Below, piece after piece: positions 2,551-42,540 of a stretch of DNA of 64,000 bases (positions within the stretch are counted from its first letter, which is position 1; every line of letters starts with the position of its first letter). The notes below the pieces were generated by a model. That model saw only the letters and a list, made by a program, of their open reading frames with translations, made no database searches and was not told where the DNA came from. Made by a program: the position numbers and the translations under genes. Source of the stretch: Chiloscyllium plagiosum (taxonomy: Eukaryota); contig NC_057718.1 of the NCBI RefSeq assembly GCF_004010195.1, positions 48,178,378 through 48,242,377 of the forward strand, read 5' to 3'.

Positions 2551-2779
2551 CTTTTAAAAAAAAGCAGAGCTGGATGATGGACATTTAATTGAATTGCAAA
2601 ATTGGTTCAAATTCAGCTCTGACTCCAATGCTTCAACATCATCAGTAGGAATGTAACTGGGAATATTCTACTTTGTTTGCAAATGGGATACTTTTGATTT
2701 TCCCGTCAAATTGAATGTTGCTTTCTCACATTTGACACAACAGACGGGTCTTACTCAGTGAAGTTGACTAACTGGATGG

Positions 2780-4111
2780 ATATGTGAAACAATCCATCTT
2801 CCGCAACTACACTGGCCCCACACCCCACCTTTTCCTCCGCTACATCGATGACTGTATCGGCGCCGCCTCGTGCTCCCACGAGGAGGTTGAACAGTTCATC
2901 CACTTCACCAACACCTTCAACCCCGACCTCAAATTCACCTGGACAGTCTCAGATTCCTCCCTCCCCTTCCTCGACCTTTCTATTTCTATCTCAGGCGACC
3001 GAATCAACACGGACATCTACTACAAACCGACTGACTCCCACAGCTACCTGGACTACACCTCCTCCCATCATGCCCCCTGTACAAATGCCATCCCATTCTC
3101 CCAATTCCTTCGACTCCGCCACATCTGCTCCCAGGAAGACCAGTTCCAAAAACGCACAACCCAGATGGCCTCCTTCTTCAAGGATCGCAATTTCCCCCCC
3201 CCCGACGTGGTCGACGATGCCCTCCACCGCATCTCTTCCACTTCCCGCTCCTCCGCCCTTGAACCCCGCCCCTCCAACCGCCACCAGGACAGAACCCCAC
3301 TGGTCCTCACCTACCACCCCACCAATCTCCATGTACAGCGCATCATCCGCCGTCACTTCCGCCACCTCCAAACAGACCCCAGCACCAAGAATATATTTCC
3401 CTCCCCTCCCCTATCAGCTGTCCGTAGAGACCACTCCCTCCGCGACCCCCTTGTCAGATCCACACACCCCACCGACCCAACCTCCACTCCCGGCACCTTC
3501 CCTTGAAACCGCANNNNNNNNNNNNNNNNNNNNNNNNNNNNNNNNNNNNNNNNNNNNNNNNNNNNNNNNNNNNNNNNNNNNNNNNNNNNNNNNNNNNNNN
3601 NNNNNNNNNNNNNNNNNNNNNNNNNNNNNNNNNNNNNNNNNNNNNNNNNNNNNNNNNNNNNNNNNNNNNNNNNNNNNNNNNNNNNNNNNNNNNNNNNNNN
3701 NNNNNNNNNNNNNNNNNNNNNNNNNNNNNNNNNNNNNNNNNNNNNNNNNNNNNNNNNNNNNNNNNNNNNNNNNNNNNNNNNNNNNNNNNNNNNNNNNNNN
3801 NNNNNNNNNNNNNNNNNNNNNNNNNNNNNNNNNNNNNNNNNNNNNNNNNNNNNNNNNNNNNNNNNNNNNNNNNNNNNNNNNNNNNNNNNNNNNNNNNNNN
3901 NNNNNNNNNNNNNNNNNNNNNNNNNNNNNNNNNNNNTCCCTCCTCCCTACCTTTTATCTTAGCCTGCTGGACAAACTTTCCTCATTCCTGAAGAAGGGCT
4001 TATGCCCGAAACGTCGATTCTCCTGTTCCCTGGATGCTGCCTGACCTGCTGCGCTTTTCCAGCAACACATTTCCAGCTCTGATCTCCAGCATCTGCAGAC
4101 CTCACTTTCTC
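2780..4111 (+). mobile_element. Penelope-like retroelement, 5'-truncated (RT C-terminal half, gap, pLTR with tail)
   Basis: ORF 2784-3506 has RYIDDCIG, LPFLDLSI, YYKPTDSHSYLDYTSSH and AIPFSQFLRL motifs. 12-bp TSD ctaactggatgg at 2768-2779 and 4112-4123. Confidence 0.92.
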
Positions 4112-4424
4112 CTAACTGGATGGTAGACTTCTCAACACAGTCAAGATTATTATCGCATTCAATGATAAAAGTGGCATGCTGTTCAGTTCATGCTAAGTGA
4201 TTGTGACAGGTCCAAGCCTATAGTTGAGCAGTCTTAACCCAGCAAGAACCAATCTCTTTGCCCTTAGCTATTATCACTGATTCACCATGGTCCCTGTTAA
4301 AACTTGCAAAGGAATCTTCAGAGATTTTAGTGGTTCAGCTGGAATCTGACTCGTGATACCAATGATTCAAACTGTTGAAATGATTGTTACAGTTTTGTAG
4401 GGAAGAGTTTTATTTCTTTATTCT

Positions 4425-4804
4425 TTCATGGAATGTTAGCCTCACTGGAAAAGCCAGCACTTTTTGCTCAGACCCTACTGGCCTTTAACTGAATGGCTTG
4501 AAAGTCTGTTTCAGAGGACAGTTCAGAGTTAATCACATTGCTGTGTGCCTAGAGTCACACGCTAGTCAGACTAGCTAAGGACAGCAGGTTTCCTTGCCTA
4601 AAGGACATCAGTGAATCAGATGGGTGTTTACACCAATCAATGATAGTTTCTTGGTCATCATCACAGAGACTAATCATCAATTCCAGATTTATTAATTGAA
4701 TTTAAATTTCACCAACTGTTGTGGTCTAATTTGAACCCATTGTCACCAGTGCTTTAGCCTGGGGTTCTGAACTGCAGCACTAGCCCAGTTACATTAACTC
4801 TATA
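4425..4804 (-). mobile_element. tRNA-derived SINE (second family), interrupted near its 5' end by a Penelope insertion
   Basis: Reverse strand has a B-box-like gggttcaaat and a body (aaatctggaat...catctgattcactgatgtcctttagg...gtgactctag) shared with 24688-24875 and 44190-44530. Confidence 0.7.
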
Positions 4805-6206
4805 AGGAGAAAGTGAGGTCTGCAGATGCTGGAGATCAGAGCTGGAAATGTGTTGCTGGAAAAGCGCAGCAGGTCAGGCAGCATCCAGGGAACAGGAGAA
4901 TCGACGTTTCGGGCATAAGCCCTTCTCCAGGAATGAGGAAAGTTTGTCCAGCAGGCTAAGATAAAAGGTAGGGAGGAAGGACTTGGGGGAGGGGCGTCGG
5001 AAATGTGATAGGTGGAAAGAGGTCAAGGTGAGGGTGAAAGGTCAGACTGGGGTGGGGGCGGAGAGGGCGGGAAGAAGATTGCANNNNNNNNNNNNNNNNN
5101 NNNNNNNNNNNNNNNNNNNNNNNNNNNNNNNNNNNNNNNNNNNNNNNNNNNNNNNNNNNNNNNNNNNNNNNNNNNNNNNNNNNNNNNNNNNNNNNNNNNN
5201 NNNNNNNNNNNNNNNNNNNNNNNNNNNNNNNNNNNNNNNNNNNNNNNNNNNNNNNNNNNNNNNNNNNNNNNNNNNNNNNNNNNNNNNNNNNNNNNNNNNN
5301 NNNNNNNNNNNNNNNNNNNNNNNNNNNNNNNNNNNNNNNNNNNNNNNNNNNNNNNNNNNNNNNNNNNNNNNNNNNNNNNNNNNNNNNNNNNNNNNNNNNN
5401 NNNNNNNNNNNNNNNNNNNNNNNNNNNNNNNNNNNNNNNNNNNNNNNNNNNNNNNNNNNNNNNNNNNNNNNNNNNNNNNNNNNNNNNNNNNNNNNNNNNN
5501 NNNNNNNNNNNNNNNNNNNNNNNNNNNNNNNNNNNNNNNNNNNNNNNNNNNNNNNNNNNNNNNNNNNNNNNNNNNNNNNNNNNNNNNNNNNNNNNNNNNN
5601 NNNNNNNNNNNNNNNNNNNNNNNNNNNNNNNNNNNNNNNNNNNNNNNNNNNNNNNNNNNNNNNNNNNNNNNNNNNNNNNNNNNNNNNNNNNNNNNNNNNN
5701 NNNNNNNNNNNNNNNNNNNNNNNNNNNNNNNNNNNNNNNNNNNNNNNNNNNNNNNNNNNNNNNNNNNNNNNNNNNNNNNNNNNNNNNNNNNNNNNNNNNN
5801 NNNNNNNNNNNNNNNNNNNNNNNNNNNNNNNNNNNNNNNNNNNNNNNNNNTGTCCAGCAGGGTAAGATAAAAGGTAGGGAGGAGGGACTTGGGGGAGGGG
5901 CGTCGGAAATCCCCCTACCTTGTCTCAGTCAAATCCATCGAATTCAGCACCGCCTTCCTAACCTGCAATCTTCTTCCTGACCTCTCCGCCCCCACCCCCG
6001 TCTGACCTATCACCCTCACCTTGACCTCTTTCCACCTATCACATTTCCGATGCCCCTCCCCCAAGTCCCTCCTCCCTACCTTTTATCTTAGCCTGCTGGA
6101 CAAACTTTCCTCATTCCTGAAGAAGGGCTTATGCCCGAAACATCGATTCTCCTGTTCCCTGGATGCTGCCTGACCTGCTGCGCTTTTCCAGCAACACATT
6201 TCCAGC
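4805..6206. mobile_element. Penelope-like fold-back insertion (antisense pLTR + gap + sense pLTR)
   Basis: 4805-5083 is the reverse complement of the pLTR and 5911-6206 is the sense copy. 15-bp TSD tacattaactctata at 4790-4804 and 6207-6221. Confidence 0.88.
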
Positions 6207-6879
6207 TACATTAACTCTATATCCCATTGGGGTAGCTCATCCTCAACTGCCTTTCTGTGGACCAGGACATTAGCAAAGTCTGGTTATATTCCCTGTGCAG
6301 ACTTACTCCCTTAAAAGGTCACGCTGTAGGAAACTGAGCAGAAATAGAAACAGGAGTTGTAGCTGCAGGAATGCTTACAACTATTGGGTGTTATTAGAGA
6401 AAGGAGGATTATTGAATGTGCAAGCCCAGATTCTCCTTGCTTTTCAACATTTGTTTATGAACTTGACATTATTGAACAATGAATAAAGTGATCTCTGTCA
6501 GAGTGTTTGAAGACTGATTGGATATTCCCTCTCTGATTGAGAGAGTCTATTTCATTGTGATACCTCACAAGTGTAGGTTGGATAAACAACTCAATATAAA
6601 AGTTTGAATCATAGTCACTCAGATTAATAAATGTAAGCTTCCAACTGTCTATGGTTCAACATAGAGTAGGCTGGTCAAATGGAAACTTAGATTCTAAGCA
6701 ACAACAAGCTCTTTCATAATTTACTTTGTCAGCAGTCAAGAAACAAATTTAGGAACAGAAAACAATCCCAATGAGAAGAAAATTGGATGTGATAATACTA
6801 AAGTCAGCATAAGAGACTGACTCGGCGTATGTAGATAAACTTCGGTACAAGGGCTAGATGTTAAGTACACAGAGATTTC

Positions 6880-7307
6880 ACAATCTGTTCATGGGATATC
6901 TGTACATCGCTTAATGTTTTTCATGCCACAACTCTTTTCCCATGCGCTGAACTCTTCAAGATCTAGAAAAAGGATTTAAATTAGAAAAAAGCAATACTTA
7001 TTTCATATCAATATGATTCAAATTTTTACTTAAATTGTATTTTGGATACAATTTTCTAATTTATGCCTCAAAAATACTACTTGAGGGCTTTAGCTGTGAT
7101 TTTCTTTTGAATTTGATCGTGAAATCTGAGCATACGCAGTGTAGCTAAAATACATTGTATCCAAAATACAATTTAAGTAATAGTTTGAATCATATTGATT
7201 TTTCTAATTTAAATCCTTATTTTGGATTTTAAAGAGTTCAGCGCATGGGAAAAGAGTTGTAGCTTGAAAAACATTAAGGATCTACAGCTATCCCGTGAGC
7301 AGATTGT
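6880..7307. repeat. Large imperfect inverted repeat (arms 6880-7052 and 7154-7307, ~100-bp spacer)
   Basis: acaactcttttcccatgcgctgaactct pairs with agagttcagcgcatgggaaaagagttgt, and tacttaaattgtattttggatacaat pairs with attgtatccaaaatacaatttaagta. Confidence 0.9.
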
Positions 7308-10760: not shown

Positions 10761-11429
10761 AGAAGCAACCTCCTTCAGAAAGAACCATCACCAAGGTCAA
10801 CAGCCAATGACATGTTCCATAAAGAGACTGGCTCAATTTAAAGATTATGCATGCAGATGAGAATAATGAACTGCAAATGCATAAGAACAATTGTGTGCAT
10901 GATGGGTAACTTGGGTAGCTCACAGCGTTAATGATGATAATTACAAATTTTTTTATATAAAAAGGGGATGCTTGGGATAGAAATACAATGCCATTAATAA
11001 TGTACCGTCAGGTTTGCTGGAATCATATGACCTCTACCATGATTGATGCAGGCATCAATCATGGAGCAATTCAGTGAAAACACATTATAAGCTACATTGC
11101 TGTCCTGAAAGTTCATACCAATTTCAGCATGTTGTTCCAATAATGGTACTGGAGTGTGCAACAGTTGTAGCTTTTCACTGTATTTTCCCTTAAATATAAG
11201 TGATAATAAGTCATTCATTCAATAAGCACTCTAACTTGCTATGTAGATGCTAAGTAGTCAATACTGCAAGGAAACATGGGAAACTTTCTAACATAGCTGG
11301 ATGGATCAAGGTGACATCATCACCTTCCCAAAAGTCTGCCAAAAGAGTGGGAATCAACATGCTCAATTGCAATGGATTGTACAAGATGTGGTTCCAAAAA
11401 AATGTAATGAAGATCCAGCAACGATTCTA

Positions 11430-13200
11430 GACAGAGACTCTTGGAAAATCACTGGTACAGATGAGCTCCCAAATGGTAGATGATTGAAACAAAACTACCT
11501 GAATGGTGTAATAACCATAGTCAGCAATCTTGACTCTTGATCAAAGGGCCTCTGTTTACATTCAGTTTTGTGAAAAGCATGCCTGTTGCCAATTTTGGCA
11601 AACAATTTTTGACAGACAATAGCATGGATTTCTCCTCTAAATCATCTGTTTAACTGAGTGAGATCTTCATCCAATCTTAGTTTTCCACTTGTCTTCGGAA
11701 CAGTTAATAGCGCCGAGCACCATTGTGTTTTGTTCTGTCATTCTTGATATGATCTCACTTTTAACCATGTTGTCTAACTGAGATTTTACCTTTTCCCCAA
11801 AAAAAGAGGAATTTTCATGTGAGTGTACAAACAGATGGGCATAGCGTCTGCTTCCTGAGTAATATGATATTTTTGCTTCAATTTGCCTTATCCTTTGGAA
11901 AGTCTTGTCAAAATTCTCTCCGATCTTCATTCTGATATGCATCTATTCCCAATAGGCTTAAACAATTATATATATTTCTGTTCAATAATTGCAACATATT
12001 TACTGTTTCACTAACACTTTCTCCTCCGTGACTAAATTTTGTGGTAATTTTTACAGATGTGCCTGGCAATCTGTGCCTCCTGGAGTTTTTGGAGTTGTAT
12101 TTTAGTGGGTCTGACATTCACAGACTTCAACAAGGCAAACTGGCTGCTGATGTTGAATCAGCTGCTCCAAGGACATTTAAATTCTGTTTCAAATCCTTGT
12201 ACTTTCAAGTTGATGGCCTAGAAGCTGTGTTGACTCTTGTTCACCTCAGATAAGAATGCTCTCTTTACCTTTTTTTCTGGGTCCACTTTCATGAGTATTT
12301 TCCTTGTAAAATTATCTTCATTTTTTTTCCTTGTAAAATGATTTACATTTCTCAGGAATTATTTATTTTTCAGAGCTTTTCCTTTGTTCCTGAGGTAATG
12401 ATGGTACTGCTAACTTAGGGTATTTTTAAATCATATTCTAGTGTCCTCGCTGGATCCTCGTTACATTCGTTCTGTTTGGACCCACATCTTGTAAAATCTA
12501 ATGCGGTTAAGAATGTTGATTCCCACTCTTTTGGTGAACTTTTGGAAGGGTGATGATGCCATCTTGAGCTATATTCATCCATGTCAGAAGAATTGCCAAT
12601 GTTTCCTTGCAGTACTGACAGCTTTTGGCCCCAGATTTCCGTCTGCATAGCCTGTTGGATTGCTTATTGAATGAATTATTTATTGTCGCTTGTATTTAAG
12701 GGAAAATATGGTGAAAAGCCTCGATCGTTGCCATGGTCCAGCACCATTATTGCAATATAAAATCTTGGTAGATTGAAGAAGGTCTGATAAATCCTCTTCA
12801 TTCACATCAAGTATTATATGGTCTCTAATTAATACATTCTTCAAGCTTCTTACCCAACGCTCAAAAATGTCAATCCACTAAAATATCTTTTATTAATTCT
12901 CTTGAATGTTGGGTGTGCTGATTAAATCATGTCCATTTTATTCCTACATTGGTAATACTTCAAAATATGTGTTAAATGCTTAATTAATGCTTCATACTCT
13001 GTAATGCCTTCTTCCATGCTTTGTGTTACCAGAATATTATGAGCTATTGACCCTACAATTTTATTATTTTAACTTCAGATCCTGGTTTGGGAACTTTTTT
13101 TTCCTCCTTACTGCAACAATGTTTTATCTTGTGTTATAAGCTGTTATTGCTACCTGCCCATTTAGATACTGGTCTTTAGCATCTTTTGGACTGTGGTGTC
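11430..13200 (-). mobile_element. Degenerate Gypsy gag-pol fragment
   Basis: Minus strand: gag-like LIRDHIILDVNEEDLSDLL (~12780-12835); RT-like EKVKSQLDNMVKSEII...WCSALLTVPKTSGKLRL...QESRLLTMVITPFR*FCFNHLPFGSSSVPVIFQ (11430-11800). Confidence 0.7.
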
Positions 13201-20150: not shown

Positions 20151-21029
20151 CTCTTATTGGCTGTTTGTCTCTAAGCAACACCATGCCATTATTTTTGATG
20201 GATGATCTTCAAAAATTTAAGACAGCATTTTTCTATCTTAAATAATGTGACATTCTTTATTGAACTAAAACTATCTTGTCTGATTTCCCTCCACTGAACA
20301 TGACGCAAATAAGATGTTATTCACAGAGCAGAGGCGAAAAAATTGCTCTGCAAATATATGTACGTGTGTGTTCAACCCACATGCTGTATTCTATGTTGCT
20401 GCATCTTCAAGCCCGCTTATAATTAACTGGCACCATGAGTCACTGACGCATAATGTGATCACCGAACAGGAAATTCAGTTCCAACAAAGCATAAACTAAT
20501 GTCTAATAGTTCTAACCAGTCATCAAAAACTGCCTTCTCAGACTTTACATCACTAAATGACAAGGTTGTACCATCTGCTGGAATTTGACTACAAACAACT
20601 TCCATCATGAGGCTGACAAAGGTTATGGTGATGACAGCTCTGACCCCTTGTATGCTACATTTGACAGGGACAATGGTGACATCTGTTAATCTGGACTACG
20701 TTGATGCATTATTTGTCAGAGCACACATTTTAATCAGTTTCCCTGGAAGACTGGCAGAAGGATGTGAAGGTATTGCATTAGTTTCATATCGCAATTTAGA
20801 GACATCAATATTTGTTCCAACATATAACACAAGGACTTATTAATGCACAGATGGATAGTAATTATCAACATAGGATCTTGCAGGTCAATGCCCAATTCCC
20901 AGATTAAGCTGTTTTGGTCTCCTCACTTTAAAATAGTCATGTAACTAACTGAAGAAAGCAAATTAGACATGTGGTGCCCAGGCCATCATTGTGTCTTCCA
21001 TAGTCAATAACTTCTTGTTACTCTTTCAT

Positions 21030-21695: not shown

Positions 21696-21805
21696 GTAGA
21701 AAGTGAGGACTGATTCCTGTTGAAGGGCTTATGCCTGAAATGTTGATTCTCCTGCTCCTTGAATGCTGCCTGACCTGCTGTACTTTTCCAGCACCCCACT
21801 CTCAA
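21696..21805 (+). mobile_element. Solo Penelope pLTR with short inverted tail
   Basis: agaaagtgaggactg (antisense tail) followed by attcctgttgaagggcttatgcctgaaatgttg...ccagcaccccactctc. Confidence 0.75.
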
Positions 21806-23147
21806 TGCTTCCTGTATTATCTCCACTTTTGGGATTTCCGGAACTGTCTTTATTTACATGCTATTATACATGATTATTTTAAAGTGAAGAGACTGAAACA
21901 GCTTAATCTGAGAAGTGGGCATTGACCTGCAAGATCCTATGTTGATAATTACTAACCATCTGTGCATTGCTAAGTCCTTGTGTTATGTGTTGGAACCAAT
22001 ATTGATGTCTCTAAACTGGGGAATCCTACAATATGAAACTAATGCAATACCTTCACATCTTTCTGCCAGTCTTCCAGGAAACTGATTAAAATGTGTGCTC
22101 TGATCATTGCAATATAGCTCTCTAGTAAAGATTATTCTGTCTTCTCAGGGTCTGTTACCATAGGACTGCTAATCTCAGTGTTACATAATCGAAAACAATA
22201 TCATGCATTCTCATTAAACAGCAATTAGTCTTTGGAATTCCTTACCCTGAGGTTCCAGGTTGAGTTAGACAGATTATTGATCCACAAATATATTGAGGAT
22301 TATGGATATGTCAGAAAAGTGGAGTTAAAGCCATAATTCGATTATCCATGACCTTATTGAATAGTCAAGCAGATTCGAGTTCTTGCAGTTACTGAAGACT
22401 AATGCCCTTTATCTTTGAGATACACATGCTGTGAACACGTGTGAGATTGAGATAAGGTAATACTGTACAGCAAACTGCCTATCCCCTTGCCTTAAGAATG
22501 CTGACAACCATGACAAGCTTTATATCTGTGCTAAAAACAATGCAATGCAGAATTACTGTGAATTTTTATATTCTGACTGCACAAAAATGCAAGGAACCAA
22601 TAGCTGGCAAGGACACTGTGAGCATCCAGGTAGGTGCAAAGTAAATGGGCACTAAGAGAATGAGTGAGCAGCCTTGAAAGGTACCCTGGTCCAGTCCCTG
22701 AACTGGGTACTTCTCCCTGACCTTGTAACAGCATTACAATGAAAGGTGCAGGTACACTCCAAGCCAGTGATCCCTCCAAGGTCCATGCATGATATAATCT
22801 TACAGAGCTGAAAGTCAGTTCACCAAGTGCAGAATGTTGGTGCAGCCTCCCAGCTTAGAGGGAACATTGCTTCAAAGTGCAGCATTGATGTATGGAAGCA
22901 TACTGCTTCAAGGATATGCCATCATGATCCTGTGATGGTATGTGTTGGATGTCAATGTCTGTGGACATGAGATGCCCATGGAATATATCCTGAGATGCTG
23001 GTGTCAAATGTCTATGATGGAAGTCTAGAGGAAAAAGCGATGAGCTGGGCTTACCAGGTACCAGCTCTGACTTTAATTCTTGGCATCTGGTTTCTATTTG
23101 GGGAGGGATAGGGAATTGGAGGCTGCATATGAAGGAGATCGGAAGGA

Positions 23148-24875: not shown

Positions 24876-25425
24876 TGCACCTCAACTTCATGTACACTCA
24901 TCTATAAGGTGTTTTAACTGAAATCTGGCAAAAATGCATATCACATCTATCACATTTTAAATTATAGTGAATCAGTACTCTGCAACTGTGTAAGTGTAAT
25001 CACTTAAAAAAAATTATAAACAGCAATGATCATAATAACTTATTCTCATATAAACTAAATATAATCCAAAGTAGCAATAAATATCTTAAGTGTGATGATC
25101 ATTATAGTTTTTTTTGAAGACTTAGATTTCATTTAGAAATTTGTTAAATAGAAATAATACTGTTTTATTTGCTTATATGCAAATATAGGTAAATACTAAT
25201 AGGTTAGGATAAAAATCTAGGAAAGTGCTATCACAAGTATCTCAATAGTCTCAATTTTGTGAAATTCATTCCAGGTCTTGATCCCTCTACCATGTTGGAT
25301 ATCATGAAAAAGTATAAACTTAATCATGGAAAGTGTAGCATTCAAGATTTTGCTCCAGAAATTGGGAGATAAAATGGTGGCAGTCAGTTAGCAAGATGAT
25401 GCTGTGATGATACTATGAGCATACT

Positions 25426-25983
25426 GGGTGGCATGGTGGCTCAGTGGTTTGTGCTGCTACCTCACAACGCAGGGATCCAGGTTTGATTCCAGCCTTGGGC
25501 AACTGTGTGGAGTTTGCACATTCTCCCTGTGTCTGCATGAGTTTCCTCCCATAGCCCAAAGATGTGCAGGTTAGCTGAATGGTAAAAACAATGACTGCAG
25601 ATGCTGGAAAACAGATTCTGGATTAGTGGTGCTGGAAGAGCACAGCAGTTCAGGCAGCATCTGAGGAGCAGTAAAATTGACATTTCGGGCAAAAGCCCTT
25701 CTATTCCTGATGAAGGGCATTTGCCTGAAACGTCGATTTTACTGCTCCTTGGATGCTGCCTGAACTGCTGTGCTCTTCCAGCACCACTAATCCAGAACCA
25801 GGTTAGCTGAATGGGCCATGCTAAATTGCCCGTAGTGTTTAGGGCTGTCTAAGTTAGCGGCATTAGTCAGTGATAATGTAAAATATTAGGGGTAGGGGAA
25901 TGGGATTAGGTGGGTTACTCTTTGAAGGGTCAGTATGGACTTGTTGGGTCAAATAGCCTGTTTCCACACTGTAGGGATTCTAC
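25426..25983 (+). mobile_element. HE1/V-SINE-type SINE interrupted by a Penelope fold-back
   Basis: SINE head and V-domain at 25426-25582; the SINE resumes at 25799. Confidence 0.85.
25583..25798. mobile_element. Penelope pLTR fold-back (palindromic) insertion
   Basis: Antisense arm 25583-25701, sense arm 25702-25798. 16-bp TSD caggttagctgaatgg at 25567-25582 and 25799-25814. Confidence 0.9.
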
Positions 25984-26263
25984 GATATTGCTTAAGATTT
26001 ACCACGTACCTACTATGAGACATAACATTACAGAAAGCAATGGAAAACCATCATTGACAAAATAAGTTAAGAAAATGGTTCAGAATGAAGCATCAGCAGC
26101 CAATGAGCCACAGCAGAGCATATATGGAAAGGGAGACAAAATGGGTAGCATCTGTATTAAATTAATCGGTGACACTTCATTATGTAATAATAAATTAAAC
26201 ATTTCAACATCTTTTACATTAGCTGTTGAATAGAACTTAAATCGGACAGGCAATGTTTATTAC

Positions 26264-30470: not shown

Positions 30471-31733
30471 GAATAAGGGATAGCATTTTTGCAGGAGGCA
30501 GGGTGGGAGGACTTTAAAGAAAGCGGCCATCTGGTGTGTTCTGTGATGAAATTGGTCCTCCTGGAAACAGATGAGGTGGATTCGGAGGAATTGGGAATAA
30601 TGGATAGCATTTTTGCAGGAGGCAAGGTGGAAGGACTTATTCCCAATTCCTCTGCCTCCACCGCATCTCTTCAGGGGGGGACTAATTTCACCACAGAACA
30701 CACCAGATAGCTTCCTTCTTTAAAGACCGCAATTTCCCCTCCCACGTGGTTGATGATGCCCTCCAACACATTTCATCCACATCCTGCACTTCTGCCCTCG
30801 AACCTCACCCCTCCAACTGCAACAAGGAGAGAACCCTCCTGGTCCTCACCTTCCACCCCACCAACCTCCGTATACATCGCATTATCCTCCGCCATTTCCA
30901 CCACCTACAAATGGACACCACCATTAGAAATATATTTCCCTCCCACCCCTAACCCTTTCCATAAAGACCGTTCCCGCCACAACTCCCTGGTCAGGTCCAT
31001 GCCCCCTAACAACCCACCCTCTTCTCTCAGCACCTTCTCCTGCCACCGTAGGAATTGCAAAACCTGCACCCACACCTCTCCCCGTCACCTCCATCCAAGG
31101 CCCCATGAGGAGCCTTGCACATCCATCAAGTTTCACCTGCATTTCCACACGTCATTTATTGCTCCCAATGCAGTCTCCTCTACATTGGGGAGACAGGACG
31201 CCTACTCGCAGAGCGCTTCAGAGAACATCTCCGGGACACCCGTAACAATCAACCCCACCACCCCGTGGCTGAACATTTCAACACCCCTCCCACTATGCAG
31301 AGGATACGCAGGTCCTGGGCCTCCTCCATCGCCACTCCTTTACCACCTGACGCCTGGAGGAATAATGCCTCACCTTCCACCTCAGGACCCTCCAACCTCA
31401 TGGATTCAATGTGGATTTCCTCATTTCCCCTCCCCACACCTTACCTCAGTTCCAACCTGCCAGCTCAGCACTGTCCTCATGACCTGTCCCACCTCTCAAT
31501 CTTCCTTCCCACCTATCCACTCCACCCTCCCCTCCAACCTATAACCTTCACCCCACTTCCATCCGCCTATTGCACTCTCAGCTACCTTGCCCCCAGCCCA
31601 ACCCCTGTCCCATTTATCTCTCCACTCCTGAGGCTCCTAGCCTCATTCCTCATGAAGGGCTTTTACCCGAAACATCAATTTTCCTGCTCCTCAGATGCGG
31701 TTTGACTGGCTGTGCTTTTCCAGCACCACACTG
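30471..31733 (+). mobile_element. Penelope-like retroelement (RT thumb, GIY-YIG endonuclease, pLTR) with inverted 5' segment
   Basis: VIYCSQCSLLYIGETGRLLAERFREHLRD..PVAEHFN (GIY-YIG). 30471-30636 holds antisense RT pieces; pLTR at 31640-31733. Confidence 0.9.
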
Positions 31734-33037
31734 TCAGCTATAATGTAATGGACATTTGGCTCTAGCTTTAGGACCTCAAGGGTGAACCAGGGTTGAAGGG
31801 ATTGAGTGTTGAAAGGTTGGCATTCTAGAGTATGGAGGTGTGAAGGAGGAAAGGTATGGCATCCAGAGTGGGTTGGGATGGGGCAGGGGTTTGTATTCAG
31901 TGAGGGTCAGATCAATGATAAATGGCAGGGTTGGGGCTATTATCATTGGAATCCTGTAGGTTGAGTTGAATGTGTTGTTTGGTGGAGGCAACAGTTACAT
32001 TGAAGAGTTAGGGACAGTGCATTCAAAGGCCTCACAGGCTGATGCATGAGAGAAAACAAATACAATAAGGCTGATGATAGGAGGATTTAGGATAAAAGTG
32101 AACACCTTGATGGTGGCAGATGTAAGCACAGTAGATGGCATATCCAGGTCAATAGCAATAGGGTCCAGGAAAATAGAGGATCAAAGGTTACAGAATAAGC
32201 TCAATAGATTCTGTTGACTGGGCCAAAGGTACTGGAGACAAGTGTGAAGATGATAGGAGAAGGACGGAAGGTACTTTATCAAGTTGGAAGGTTACATACA
32301 CCTCCATCCTTTCTGAGTCACTTCATAGGCATTTGGGATTGTCAGGATTGCAAATTGAAGTGGGAACAGACAAATGTAGGATGGGTGGTCTTTCCAGTGT
32401 AACATAAGGATTTTAAAAATTCTTTGCTCAATAGTTGAATGCATGAACAACAGGCAAACAATTACTGGAAGACCCTGGGTCTCATTCAGTCAATATTCCT
32501 GCTGTTGCCTTTTAACAACCAAGGTCACATTGTGCTTCATTTCTCCATCAATGATAACAGCTAGTCAGCACGGTCAGCCATGTTTGGTGTTATTGCGCAG
32601 TTCCTCGAAAACACTTGAGGTATTTGAGTTCCTTGTAGTCTGACAGCTGAATTTGTGAACTCTTATTTTGCAGTACGGTAAGTGCATGTAGCATCATTCT
32701 TCCTCAGGTAAGAGTGAACTAAAAGAGCCTCAGGAGGAGGTTAGGATTAGGGTTGCAAAGCGTGAGTGTAAATGTGAATGACCCTTTTATAGGGATCAGA
32801 ATTATAGAGATACATGCATTAGATACAAGGGATAACCTGATCTATATATGGTTCACCCAACAGCAAGGCAGCCCTGTGACCATTGTCTCATAAGAATTCC
32901 ATTGCTTTCCTGAGATACCATTAAATTTCGTTCTCAAACTAAGCAGTTCTCAAAAATGACAACTATGTGCTCCAGAATATTCTTAAGACTGTGACAGGAG
33001 GAACATACTGATAATCAAGCCCCACCACTTCACCAGT

Positions 33038-34718: not shown

Positions 34719-36284
34719 TCATCATGGCCAAGTTTTCTCCTTGCTATGACTATTAAAAATAATAGAATTGTTACCATGTTTCTTTAATGAACTCAGAATG
34801 ACCTGTTTATTATTAACAAAACTTGTTGTGAAAGCAAGTGGCAACTACTGATTAACATCTAAGTTATGATCTAGAATTAAAACTATATCCCTCTTAATCC
34901 CACACATACACTCACTTGCAATGAAAACAAGACAAGTCACTGCAGGGTCTGCAGAAATGGGATTTTTTAAAAAAAGGCAAAAGGGTAAAAAAACAACTCG
35001 AGTGGACAAAGGTCTGGAAACAAAATATAAAAACATTGAAGAGCTGAAGTGATGTTTGAGTTGCACTGAGGGCTGGCATAATAGTATAGTGAAGCTGGTG
35101 GCTTGTTGCTGGTGACTTGTGTGGGTTGGTGGAGGAGGACGATGGTCAAGAACTGTGCAGGGACAATGTTCTGAAGAAGCAGTTGTGGGCGAGGGGTTAA
35201 TGTCAGGTGAATGAAGGGTTAGCGTGGCAGGTAGGTGATGGTGTTAAGAGCTAACACATGGTGGCGTATCAGGGTGCCAGAATGACGAAGGAGGGAGGGG
35301 TAGGATGCCAGGTGGGATTTAGGGAGCAGGATGTAGGTAAATAGGTGAATTCTTTAGATGGATCAAGGCGTCAGGCCAGGTAGCTCTGTTGGGTCCTGTG
35401 GGGTCAAGTTGAGTTGAGCAAAGTCCAATTGTATCAGCTCCTGGGACATGGGGTCTATTCGGGTCAGGTCAGAGTGGAAGGTGTTGGTGTGAAATAGCAC
35501 ATATTAGGATGGGAATTTGAATCAGACATGAGGGGCAATACAGTGGCCCAGGAGGTCATTTTTAATGATCACATTTAATAAGATATGACAAGCAATATCA
35601 TTGAACTTTGCAATGAGAATCCCTGAAAAAACTTGACAAAACTAGCCATTGCCAAAAAACAATGTAAGGCTCAGCCCTAAGTTTAAGAAATTAAAACTTT
35701 CAAAGGAAATAATAACAACTTAAAATCCTCAAAGTCCTCTTAAATGAGATACTTTTAAACTTGTCCATTTTCTTGATTATATGTGTTTCATAATTAATTT
35801 AACCACCAGGAACCGAATGTGGAAATATGTAACAAATTCCTTTATTGTGCAAAAAGAATTCCTTTTGTAGAACTGCTCTATATGGCTCAGGAAGGTGCAA
35901 TGTTGTTTCTCATCCTGTGTTGAGATAGCTTTCAACTGAGCTGACACTTCCCTTGTTTGCCTCAGTAATTGTGATCTAATAAAGGGAAAACTCAGTAGGA
36001 ATTTTGCTCTGAACTTTTATTGATTACACCCTGTGAAACAATGTTGACATTTTCTTTCCATTCAAGATTTTTTCTAACAGTCTAACATTGATGTAAAGAG
36101 AGGTAGGCATAGGACTCTCATGCTGCTACAGTTAAATAATATGGCAACACTCACTGACTAGGTTGATCTGTGAACAATGTCTAATTCAAAAAGGTGCTAG
36201 GGATCAGCTGCCAGCAGTAAAATTATATCAGAGTAAGTGCAGAAGAGACAATATGGAAATAACGGGAAAGTTGTCATTGTTCCA

Positions 36285-36448
36285 CTGTCTGATTAGAGAG
36301 CGACATTTGGTGGTGCTTTTCATCTGAAGGTCACCATGTCTTGGTTGAGAAAGCAGGATCTCCACAGTAATCTCAGCAGTGCAGGGATTAACCTCACATC
36401 AATCTATATCACAAACCAGATGGCTAGCCAACTGAGATAACCAACCAC
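36285..36448 (-). mobile_element. Possible old tRNA-derived SINE fragment
   Basis: Minus strand begins ggttggttatctcagttggctag...gaggttaatccc (A/B-box-like). Confidence 0.4.
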
Positions 36449-36481
36449 TTAATGGGGAGCAACTGGCAAATTAAATTGCAA

Positions 36482-36883
36482 TGGTAAAAACAAGGGCTGC
36501 AAATGCTGGAAACCAGATTCTAGATTAGAGTGGTGCTGAAAAAGCACAGCAGTTCAGGCAGCACCCGAGGAGCAGGAAAATCGACATTTCGTGCAAAAGT
36601 CCTTTCTACCCCTCCCTCCTTCACCATTCTGGCACCCTGATACCTCACCATGTGTTAGCTCCTAACACCATCACCTACCTGCCACGCTAACACTTCATTC
36701 ACCTGGCATTAACCCCTCACCCACAACTGCTTCTTCAGAACATTGTCCCTGCACACTTCTTGACCATCATCCTCCTCAACCAACACTCTATTCCTGATGA
36801 AGGGCTTTTGCCTAAAACATCGATTTTCCTGCTCCTCGGATGCTGCCTGAACTGCTGTGCTTTTCCAGCACCACTCAAATCTA
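36482..36883. mobile_element. Penelope pLTR fold-back containing a captured inverted copy of 35125-35303
   Basis: Antisense arm 36482-36604, foreign insert 36606-36784, sense arm 36788-36883. 14-bp TSD aaattaaattgcaa at 36468-36481 and 36884-36897. Confidence 0.9.
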
Positions 36884-38206
36884 AAATTAAATTGCAAGTA
36901 AAAGATCCAAAAAGCTGCTGCAAAGCATACATTCACACCCATAAACCCATAAAATCACATGGAGATACAGATTTGGTTGCTGGTTCTTGGTGGAGGGTGT
37001 GTGCATGAGTGGTGGTGTACTGGCCTTATCCTTCTTGAATAATGCCACACTCCCCTTTCTTCCTTTTAGTTTTCCATCTTTCCCTCATTCATCAACAGCA
37101 CCCATGGGAAGGAACATCCATAGGCATGATGACCATCAACACTCTCTATTATGGTAGAGTTGGTGGTGGTGTTGGATGTTTTGTTGATCTTTGTTGAGGT
37201 GAACAAGAGACCCTCGCTCTACTTGGTTGAAAATCCATCTTACGGATCACACAACCAAACAAAGCGCAGAGATATTTGTAAAGGTCCAGCACTTTTACCA
37301 ATATTATGGCACAAATGGGCAGAATGTAATAGTTGTGGTGAGGTCCCACTCACCAGCCATAAAGCCAATGGAAACCTTGCCATGGGCATTCCCAGGAGGC
37401 CTATTGTAGACATAATCCCTACCTATTGCGTGTCAGGCTTCCTTGTTCCTGTCCTCAGAAATCCTGGTGCTGGTGGATATTCTGACTTTGAGAACTGATG
37501 ACCAATCAGAGGCCAGCAGTGCTACCGGATGCAGCAGCTATGGCAGTGTGGGCTACTGGCCCTTAAGAGCATGGAAAACTGCTGGAGCCTCAGAAGAAAA
37601 GTAAGTGAGGATGAATTTGTTGAGGCCAGATAGGGAATCCTTAATGAGAGGGGCAGGGGTGTTATTTAAAAGACAGAGAAGAGTCTTACTCATGGTCCAT
37701 CTGTCACTGCTAGTGGGGGCATCTGTCGGGCACAAAGTGCCCTTCAAGATCACTGGCTCATTCCAAGATTTTAAGCCTGTATGGAGGGGCTCTTATCAGT
37801 GCTGGTAACATGTCAATAGAATAGGGTATGGCCCTTAACTATTTCAATTAGACCCTGGATGCGAAAGTCATCCTTGAGTATTCCTGCCTTGGCCTAAATT
37901 GGAAGGATGCAGGATCCCACACCTAACGTCCAAATACACAGTACCCCTGCCTTGGGTTCACCTCCACATGAGTGGGGAAAGTTGTACCCCATATTTCATT
38001 GTTCTGGTTGTGAATGACACAGAACATAAAGCAGGCATGTATCTTGGGAGGAACCGATGATAACATTATCCATTATCATAAACACATTTGAATATCAGCA
38101 TTGCTGCAGACGCAGGAGGAAGATGGGGTCCATATGAAGGAGAAATTTTATTAGTTCAAAAACAGGATGGAAACTTATCAAAAACAGGACTGGACCACTA
38201 CTTTAC

Positions 38207-40299: not shown

Positions 40300-42540
40300 G
40301 AAGACACAAATAACTTCTCAGAAGTGCTATGGAAGCAAGGGTATTTCAGAAGGAGGGACTGAAGAAAATTAGTATTGGTTAAAAAAAAAAAGTGCTGGAG
40401 CAATTAATAGGACTGTTATCTGATAAATTGTCAGAGTTTGATAATCCACATTCCAGGGGACTAAAGGAGGTTGCATGGAAATAGTGGACGTGTTGCTTGG
40501 CATCTTCCAACATTCCAAAACAGTCCTAGTAGATTTGTGAATGGCAAATGTAACCCCACTGTTTAAAAAAAGGAAGTAGGGAGAAAACTGGGCATTTAAA
40601 TACCAGTTGGCCTAATGTCAGTAGTGGGGAAAATGTTGGAATCCATTGTAAAGGATCAGGACATTTAGGAAAAAAATGGCATTATACAAAATCAGTATGG
40701 ATATATAAAAGGGAAATTATGTTTGACAAACTCATGGACCTTTTACAAAGATATAACTGGTAGAATAGATGAGGAAGCATCACTGGATATGATGCATTTG
40801 GATTTGCAGAAAGCTTTTGATAAGATGTTGTGAAAAATCAAAGCTCAAAGTTTGTGCGAAGATTTGTAGCTCGGGTGCTCGTTGTTGTGGTTCTGTTCGC
40901 CGAGCTGGAAGTTTTTGTTGCAAACGTTTCATCCCCTGGCTAGACGACATCATCAGTGCTTGGGAGCCTCCTGCGAAGCGCTTCTTTGATGTTTCCTCCG
41001 GTGTTAATAGTGGTCTGTCCCTGCCGCTTCTGGTTGTCAGTTTCAGCTGTCCGCTGTAGTGGTTGGTATATTGGATCCAGGTCGATGTGTTTGTTTGATG
41101 GAGTTTGTGGATCAAACACATCGACCTGGACCCAATATACCAACCACTACAGCGGACAGCTGAAACTGACAACCGGAAGCGGCAGGGACAGACCACAATA
41201 AACACCGGAGAAAACATCAAAGAAGCGCTTCGCAGGAGGCTCCCAAGCACTGATGATGTCGTCTAGAAATGTTTGCAACAAAAACTTCCAGCTCGGCGAA
41301 CAGAACCACAACAAAAATCAAAGCACATGGGATTGGTGGTAATGAATGGACATGGATTAAGAATCAGTTAACAGGCAGGTAACAAAGAGTAGAAATAAAT
41401 GGGGCAGATTTGGAGTGGGAGGCAGTGACAAGGATCAGTGCTTGGGCCCCAGCTATTTGTATATATAACAACAATTTTGAGTTGGTAATCAAATGAAATA
41501 TTTCCAAGTTTGCTGATGACATAAAACTAAGTGAGAATGAGTGTGGGCAGAGTAAATGAAGAGGTTTCCAAATGATTGAGACAAGTTGAATGAGTGGGCA
41601 AATACATGAAAAATACATTACAACATTGATAAGTGTGAAGTTATCTACTGTGATATAAATATTATTTAAAAGCTGATGGATTGGCCAAGATTGATGTACA
41701 AAGGGATTGGATAACCTGATATACCCTTTGTACCACAATCCCTGGTATAATAAGCATGCGGGTCTAGCAAGCATTTAGGAAGACAAATAGTTTTTAGCCC
41801 TCATTGCAAGAAGGTTTGAAAACAGAACAAGGATGTCTTACTATAGCTGCACAGAGGCTAAGTGAGACCACACCTGGAGTAGTGTGTGTGCAGGTTTGGT
41901 CTCTTTACCTAGGAAAGATGTACTTATCATAGGTGGAATGAAATAAAGGTTTACCAGACCAGTTCCTGGGATGGCAGGTTTGTCATCAATTGAGTCAACT
42001 GGATCTATAGTCACTGGAATTTAGAAGAGTGAGAGGGATCTCATTGAAACCTATAAAATTCTGATAGGCTCAATAGATTGGAAGTGGAGATATTTCCTTG
42101 GCTGGAAGGGCTCCAGAACAAGAGGGTCACATTCGCAGTGTGGATGGTAGTCCATTTTGGATTGAGATCAGGAGAAACATCTTCACTTACAGGGTGTGAG
42201 CCTATGAAGTCAGAGAACCCCTACAGTGTGGAAGCAGGTCATTCAGCCCATCGAGTCCACACTGTCCCTCCGAGGAACATCCCACCTAGACCCAAGCCCA
42301 ATGGCTAATTGACCTAGCCTGCAGATCCCTGAACACAAATTCTCTACTATAGAAAGCTGTGGAAGTGAAATCACTAAATCTATTTAAGAAGGAAATCGAT
42401 GGAATCCAGAAGCTGAATGTGTCAAGTCATATAAGGAGAGCTCGATAGTATGGTGTTGAGATCAACATGATCAGGTTGAATTGCAGATGGGACTAGATGG
42501 ACTGAATGGCCTAATTCTGCATCTATTTTATATGTTTCTA
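40300..42540 (+). mobile_element. Old CR1 LINE (RT to 3' end), interrupted by a Penelope and a SINE fragment
   Basis: ANVTPLFKKG, LDLQKAFDK, SKFADDIKL, RPHLEY and RRVRGDLIETYKIL motifs, degenerate. Confidence 0.85.
40845..41312. mobile_element. Penelope-like fold-back insertion of a different family
   Basis: 40881-41092 is the reverse complement of 41113-41312. Hammerhead-like GCA-CTGATGA-...-GAAAC-GTT-TGC on minus at 40920-40959. 12-bp TSD aaaaatcaaagc at 40833-40844 and 41313-41324. Confidence 0.88.

Follow-up and report, generated by a model that had tools for sequence, protein, structure and literature searches.

In the window analysed here, a 64-kb stretch of DNA from Chiloscyllium plagiosum, an old, inactive insertion that we assign to the Penelope-like elements (PLEs) carries a 179-bp inverted copy of neighbouring DNA at the head-to-head join of its two arms. 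The anatomy of this insertion, the low copy number of the captured segment, the direction of copying and the presence of the insert in two related organisms form the observed part of the explanation that we favour, on balance, as the probable one, namely that, in the course of one old Penelope insertion, local DNA was copied where two cDNAs came to be joined.

BLAST analysis within the window aligned 36606-36784 without gaps to the reverse complement of 35125-35303, with 168 of 179 positions identical (11 substitutions, 93.9%, E 2e-75), and detected no third copy of the segment in the 64 kb. As determined by a repeat scan of the window, the two copies are separated by 1302 nt; from the end of the donor to the start of the left target site duplication (TSD) the distance is 1164 nt, i.e. 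~1.2 kb. The arms and the insert form a 402-nt block enclosed by one exact 14-bp TSD (36468-36481 and 36884-36897), and the insert sits exactly between the arm ends, with the TSD intact. These results confirmed an earlier sequence-only reading of the stretch, which had described an inverted copy of local DNA at the turn of a fold-back within a 14-bp TSD. The features of the locus, and the insertion with which it was compared, are as follows.

35040-35560 (unstranded): G-rich single-copy block enclosing the donor; GC skew ~+0.5 on the plus strand, raw-read depth 0-2
35125-35303 (minus strand, which reads as the insert): donor of the captured segment; 168/179 identical to 36606-36784
36468-36481 (plus strand): left copy of the TSD, 14 bp; exact match to 36884-36897
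36482-36604 (minus strand): left arm, an antisense Penelope-type terminal module with a one-sided 35-39-nt tail (36482-36520); 88% to the comparison copy's left arm and 78-84% to the other terminal modules of the window
36606-36784 (plus strand): captured 179-bp inverted copy at the head-to-head join of the arms; from repeat scan and alignment, with orthologous contigs in organisms B and C
36785-36788 (plus strand): 4 bases between insert and right arm; no clean match to the continuation of the donor or to the native upstream sequence of the family (junction view; family consensus before 36789)
36789-36883 (plus strand): right arm, a sense terminal module starting just before a hammerhead-like core; 93% to 25702-25788, raw-read depth ~66,600
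36884-36897 (plus strand): right copy of the TSD, 14 bp; exact match to 36468-36481
25567-25814 (unstranded): comparison insertion of the same subfamily without cargo at its turn; two-arm layout with tail, 16-bp TSD

Anatomy and family membership of the insertion

The locus presents the layout of an EN+ Penelope-like insertion, with a head-to-head inverted, 5'-truncated terminal copy, a one-sided tail of 35-39 nt and the exact 14-bp TSD, and its putative membership of the Penelope type rests on this layout and on its likeness to longer copies in the window. No reverse transcriptase (RT) or GIY-YIG open reading frame is present at the locus. The longer copy at 30641-31740 gave a weak GIY-YIG match (E 0.0039, below the cut-off) just before a terminal module that is 86% like the right arm. 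A short inverted repeat (30509-30728) lies at the 5' end of this longer copy, and its head-to-head turn falls in the coding region and not at the hammerhead. Frame 2772-3503, which we take to be a PLE RT, had no match in Pfam or PDB; its Atlas neighbours (0.96), eukaryotic clusters, carry PF26215, and one of these clusters also carries RVT_1 in 19%.

The core of the right arm contains CTGATGA and a GAAAC-like box, with a 4-bp stem between them. Folding yields the stem, with an energy that is not significant (z -0.57), and we take the core to correspond to the hammerhead consensus, which Rfam did not recognize here; at the gathering score, Rfam gave no match anywhere in the 64 kb. The exact 23-nt motif of the terminal module was found at no locus in the metagenome, viral and prokaryote collections, and no L1 sequence was detected in the insertion.

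The two arms are identical at 78 of 88 positions, and each has bases that the other lacks. The left arm reaches 35-39 nt further 3' than the right arm, both at the locus and in the comparison copy, and the right arm carries 11 bases at its 5' end (36789-36799) that are absent from the left arm; thus, neither arm is a plain copy of the other, and two separately primed cDNAs fit better than one. A difference of 2 nt from the comparison copy is common to both arms, indicating that they derive from the same type of template. This shared difference would also suit an account in which a single strand copies the terminal module, switches to neighbouring DNA and switches back for the mirror arm, as do the self-priming proposed for head-to-head palindromes of PLEs (PMC3846280) and the cDNA snap-back seen for R2 (PMC11371274). 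We consider this account very unlikely, because the 11 bases of the right arm are not in the left arm and the tail of the left arm is not in the right, and a return of the strand to its own cDNA would need trimming or an antisense template. The sequence-only reading had proposed such a templated excursion of one nascent strand during integration. What stands of this proposal is a templated copy of local DNA, with integration as the most likely timing, whereas the passage of a single strand away and back is weakened by the asymmetry of the arms.

The six bases GTAAAA open the flank just right of the TSD (36898-36903) and occur again at 36484-36489, near the start of the left arm. Furthermore, the ATT found on the minus strand at the tail junction, in the locus as well as in the comparison copy, is the cleavage motif reported for the Anolis element. 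Possibly, these matches reflect pairing between target and RNA at priming.

A comparison insertion with a cargo-free turn

The comparison copy (25583-25798) is flanked by an exact 16-bp TSD (25567-25582 and 25799-25814). Its arms are 88-93% like those of the locus and differ from each other at 6 of 86 positions. Its right arm begins at the base at which that of the locus begins (TATTCC), and the ends of the two left arms correspond to within 1 nt, in agreement with the claim of the sequence-only reading that this copy has the same turn without the insert. Its proposed use as an internal control holds in part: the cargo-free turn with its 16-bp TSD is real, but the copy is a separate insertion at another site and not an empty allele, and is therefore silent on when the cargo arrived. 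The cargo-free turn was not among the 15 joints listed of 938, which lends no support to its being a common inherited form.

Four stubs of the window begin within a few bases of one point just before the hammerhead-like core (21713, 25702, 36789 and 57400), and local cargo was present in one of the four terminal-module hairpins noticed in the window (that at 36482; not those at 25583, 21698 and 40882). The comparison hairpin interrupts the middle of a multi-copy repeat resembling a short interspersed element (25422-25986), the halves of which lie on either side of it. The hairpin at 40882-41314 is young and of a different family, with arms 97% alike and a 19-nt centre, and lies inside an apparent CR1-type fragment; it contains what we take to be a hammerhead-like motif. 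Three young terminal modules, 97-99% alike and in mixed orientation, are located at 3937-6208 beside assembly gaps, and the layout there may be misresolved. An old AT-rich palindrome of ~430 bp, single copy in the window, occupies 6880-7307.

Direction of copying and nature of the donor

The donor is embedded in a G-rich block of ~520 bp (35040-35560) that continues past both ends of the match, whereas the insert is bounded by the arms of the element. Moreover, the donor retains five CpG dinucleotides and the insert one. The direction of copying is therefore from donor to insert. The block has no second match in the window outside the insert, and its CpG is less depleted than that of the window (observed/expected ~0.6 versus 0.23). 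Among 179-nt stretches of the non-repeat DNA of the window, the donor has the highest G share, which none of 1,856 overlapping stretches outside its block reaches, whereas 11 reach its skew; this is a property of a single locus that was spotted post hoc.

Six-frame translation of the donor block gave no recognizable protein, and the longest frame over it had no Pfam match. No function of the 179-bp copy is indicated. Two other derivations of the pair were considered and dropped. Donor and insert as the terminal repeats of a DNA transposon would disagree with the location of one copy within a PLE insertion that has its own TSD; around the donor, no TSD of at least 6 nt was found. A PLE transduction, by read-through from a source element, in which cargo from beside that element would move between direct pseudo-long terminal repeats to a distant site, likewise does not correspond to what was found, in that the donor adjoins the target site and no pseudo-long terminal repeat (pLTR) flanks it.

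Copy number and presence in related organisms

Public sequencing runs were searched for the locus; 24 were listed, 18 of which contained part of the stretch, from organisms A, B and C, and four runs were compared with 34800-37199 at 80% likeness. In the raw reads of organism A (run X19, ~4% of the run), the depth was 0-2 on the donor and 0 on the core of the insert, as opposed to ~66,600 on the right arm, with a background of 0.8. The zero on the insert core is not proof of absence, as 7 of 30 bins were empty in that run. The depth values show that the 179-bp segment is single- or very low-copy at 80% likeness. Upstream of 36789, reads of the family run into a different sequence (8,586 reads, agreement 0.77), and hence the insert does not represent the native upstream region of the family. 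Neither a high-copy repeat nor a normal part of the family, the two outcomes against which the sequence-only reading had been set, was thus encountered.

A contig of organism B bridges the left flank and the left arm, extending 31 nt into the arm, and the same junction is bridged in X15, a run from another individual of organism A (records from X15 and X5). A second contig of organism B (36636-36823) bridges the insert and the right arm, reaching 35 nt into the arm with six differences; a third, running from the right arm to the right flank, contains only 23 arm bases, which is under the bridging threshold of 31 nt. In organism C, a contig covers 36606-36755 with one difference, and this low number identifies it as the insert and not the donor. 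As contigs of two related organisms contain the insert, it must be old and is no assembly artefact. In X15, there was neither a contig nor depth on the insert core, and the contigs of the donor break at 35154-35183, a 30-mer common to the insert, which is indirect evidence that both copies are present in X15. At four positions (35285, 35537, 35996 and 37005) the X15 individual and organism B agree with each other against the window, indicating private alleles or assembly errors, and organism B is without 18 bases at 36351.

These data also bear on the explanation that the segment is a dispersed repeat or family part with its two copies close together by chance, or that the locus is mis-assembled. 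The donor block is compositionally odd and CpG-rich, as a decayed fragment of a mobile element might be, and the assembly has gaps at young PLE copies. Nevertheless, given the contrast in depth between the segment and the right arm, the different sequence upstream of 36789 in the family reads, the 11 sites at which the copies differ and the insert in two other organisms, an origin of this kind is extremely improbable.

Age of the copy relative to the arms

Donor and insert differ at 11 of 179 positions (6.1%) and the two arms at 10 of 88 (p = 0.15); outside CpG, the corresponding values were 7 of 169 and 6 of 80 (Fisher p = 0.36). Between organisms A and B, 75 of 2221 bases differ in four contigs (3.4%), as compared with the 6.1% between donor and copy (p = 0.06). 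At four of the 11 donor/insert differences, the donor of organism B has the base of the insert, pointing to late changes in the donor; at one of these four sites X15 also shows the base of the insert, so that this donor change is private to the window. Since B and C have the insert too, the copying preceded the splits between A, B and C. The divergence data fit a single event, and they also allow a somewhat later second event.

Such a second event would be a repair, in which a plain hairpin landed first, its centre was later broken by cruciform or hairpin cleavage, and the break was patched by a templated copy of nearby DNA, making the element a fragile site and not a copier. Later repair likewise predicts cargo at the turn. 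The divergence between donor and insert is nominally below that between the arms, a 180-bp human palindrome has been reported to mediate insertions (PMC7999016), and local inverted duplications arise in the window without a PLE turn. We nonetheless regard it as unlikely, as the age difference is not significant and both relatives compared already carry the insert. In addition, no arm sequence has been lost relative to the cargo-free turn, where a break in the centre would presumably trim as a rule, and four older or similar hairpins in the window retain short centres.

A model for copying at the join of two cDNAs

In the explanation that we favour, the PLE protein would make two cuts in an AT-rich site, one per strand with 14 nt between them, and both target 3' ends would be extended on the terminal RNA of the element, a distal start giving the left arm with its tail and a proximal start the right arm. 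Both cDNAs would stop near the hammerhead; being of the same polarity, they could not simply anneal, and end joining would be needed. Before joining, one cDNA end would prime on nearby chromosomal DNA, copy 179 nt, be released and be joined to the end of the other cDNA. In the simplest geometry, the left (top-strand) cDNA would loop onto the plus strand of the donor ~1.3 kb behind its tip, which would give the inverted orientation seen; with this cDNA as primer, the template would be its own strand in single-stranded form, or a plus-strand RNA. The copying polymerase may have been the RT of the element or a host repair enzyme. That two cDNAs took part we infer from the asymmetry of the arms together with published biochemistry; likewise, and each as a point of its own, we infer the timing at integration, the DNA template and which of the cDNAs was extended. 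In insertions of L1 and R2, similar pieces templated on local DNA are made before the final join, an analogy that we count in favour of this explanation.

An RNA template with the same timing would mean that the RT of the element left its own RNA for a nascent transcript of the region and copied 179 nt of that transcript, which would be a plus-strand RNA if the left cDNA was the one extended. The orientation of the insert fits, and one L1 case of a co-inserted local pre-mRNA has been described (PMC10191854). Against this, there is no sign of a host gene, as none of 102 non-repeat frames of at least 52 aa between 22 and 51 kb matches Pfam, although short exons would escape such a scan (of the 237 non-repeat frames listed, the 102 were those located in 22-51 kb, less two scanned separately). 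The insert has neither a poly(A) nor a splice feature, and no RNA run with the stretch was found, a weak point since the search asked for DNA runs. In our view, an RNA template is distinctly unlikely.

Several findings weigh against copying at the join of two cDNAs during integration. No convincing microhomology is seen at either junction (1-2 nt at most at the left, 4 bases without match at the right), the event being old enough to have lost such a signal. Outside CpG, the point estimates lean towards a copy younger than the arms (4.1% versus 7.5%), a difference that is not significant. The absence of depth on the insert core in X15 has to be counted here, as has the junction between left arm and insert, which is bridged by none of the 24 records listed from a longer set (214,082 further records). 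The distance to the donor is far beyond the usual, which is within 15 bp for L1 and ~30 nt for snap-back end joining. Finally, two other local inverted duplications of the window occur without a PLE turn.

One of these is an inverted two-copy duplication at 20716-20943 and 21867-22103 (89.5% over 238 columns, 923 nt apart); the other, at 11135-11431 and 12437-12755, is likewise inverted and two-copy but older (75%, 1005 nt apart). Neither is supported as PLE cargo, as no arm and no TSD of at least 6 nt was found at their ends, and hence local inverted copying also takes place without a PLE turn. With two of the three short-range inverted two-copy duplications of the window lying in no Penelope turn, the suggestion of the sequence-only reading that the element is a generator of local templated duplications remains a conjecture. 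An exposed, single-stranded G-rich donor would fit the model, but these two duplications have no skew. A PLE stub (21698-21800) is located between the copies of the first duplication, 66 nt before the second copy. Between the copies of the older one lies frame 11667-11942 (minus strand), presumably a decayed piece of an LTR-type polymerase as judged by eye, with no significant Pfam match.

Comparison with known systems

A cargo at the arm join, for which donor, side and orientation are known, preserves a late step of PLE transposition as a fossil; being a single locus, it has the standing of an anecdote, of a type familiar from L1. That such events recur in PLEs, with one of two same-polarity cDNA ends borrowing a kb-distant template, perhaps an exposed single-stranded G-rich strand, is a conjecture that we put forward only tentatively. 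If true, hundreds of comparable fossils would be expected among the tens of thousands of hairpin stubs in the genome, and the late steps of PLE transposition could be read from their side, orientation and distance. PLEs would then steadily give rise to local inverted duplications, over a characteristic kb-scale distance that has not been described for L1 or R2. Literature searches, with most subscription journals outside their coverage and the supplementary donor distances of the two L1 bioRxiv studies not included, yielded no report of a PLE insertion whose donor was local.

In PLEs, a one-sided tail of 30-40 bp and an adjacent inverted truncated copy are standard (PMC8557442; PMC3846280). 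The purified Anolis PLE protein (PAc) cuts and extends both strands, and two RT start sites delimit the tail; according to the same study, what follows first-strand synthesis still awaits validation (PMC11167929). The locus resembles the units of EN+ PLEs such as Pen2a_Av and PAc in its head-to-head inverted terminal repeats, its 30-40-bp one-sided tail, its short TSD and its AT-rich target. In the rotifer Adineta vaga, host of Pen2a_Av (PMC3846280), unrelated host sequence has been reported between pLTRs with a TSD, and the available text names no local donor for it. Unlike that case, the present locus has arms reduced to 95-123 nt and holds its cargo at the head-to-head join and not between direct pLTRs, and the donor is identified beside the target.

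Among ~3,600 human L1 insertions, 22 were templated, typically with pieces of <250 bp from within 15 bp of the site (10.1101/2024.08.27.596794). L1 in normal and adenoma clones was accompanied by four short fold-back duplications of 52-220 bp and the one co-inserted local pre-mRNA (PMC10191854), and three further L1 insertions have been reported with sequence templated from near the site (PMC11702581). As in these templated insertions, a local genomic piece of <250 bp, here 179 bp from a single-copy donor, is contained in an insertion that keeps its TSD. The present case differs in the class of the element, in a donor 1164 bp away as compared with typically within 15 bp, and in that the piece joins two cDNAs of the same region.

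For R2, in the PRINT system, the 3' end of the cDNA primes further DNA-templated synthesis before closure, with the cDNA itself or, more rarely, target DNA nearby as the template (PMC11371274); in contrast to the present locus, the R2 snap-back junctions concern one cDNA, engineered in human cells with an rDNA target, and the available text describes no kb-distant donor. In snap-back synthesis-dependent microhomology-mediated end joining, a 3' end folds back along its own strand, so that the junction acquires a templated copy in inverted orientation, with loops within ~30 nt of the break (PMC5728401). The insert described here is likewise an inverted copy from the same side of the break, but with a loop of ~1.3 kb and a length of 179 nt, as compared with ~30 nt and short inserts. 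The kind of event is thus known, and what differs is the class of the element, the position at the head-to-head join and the reach of 1.2 kb.

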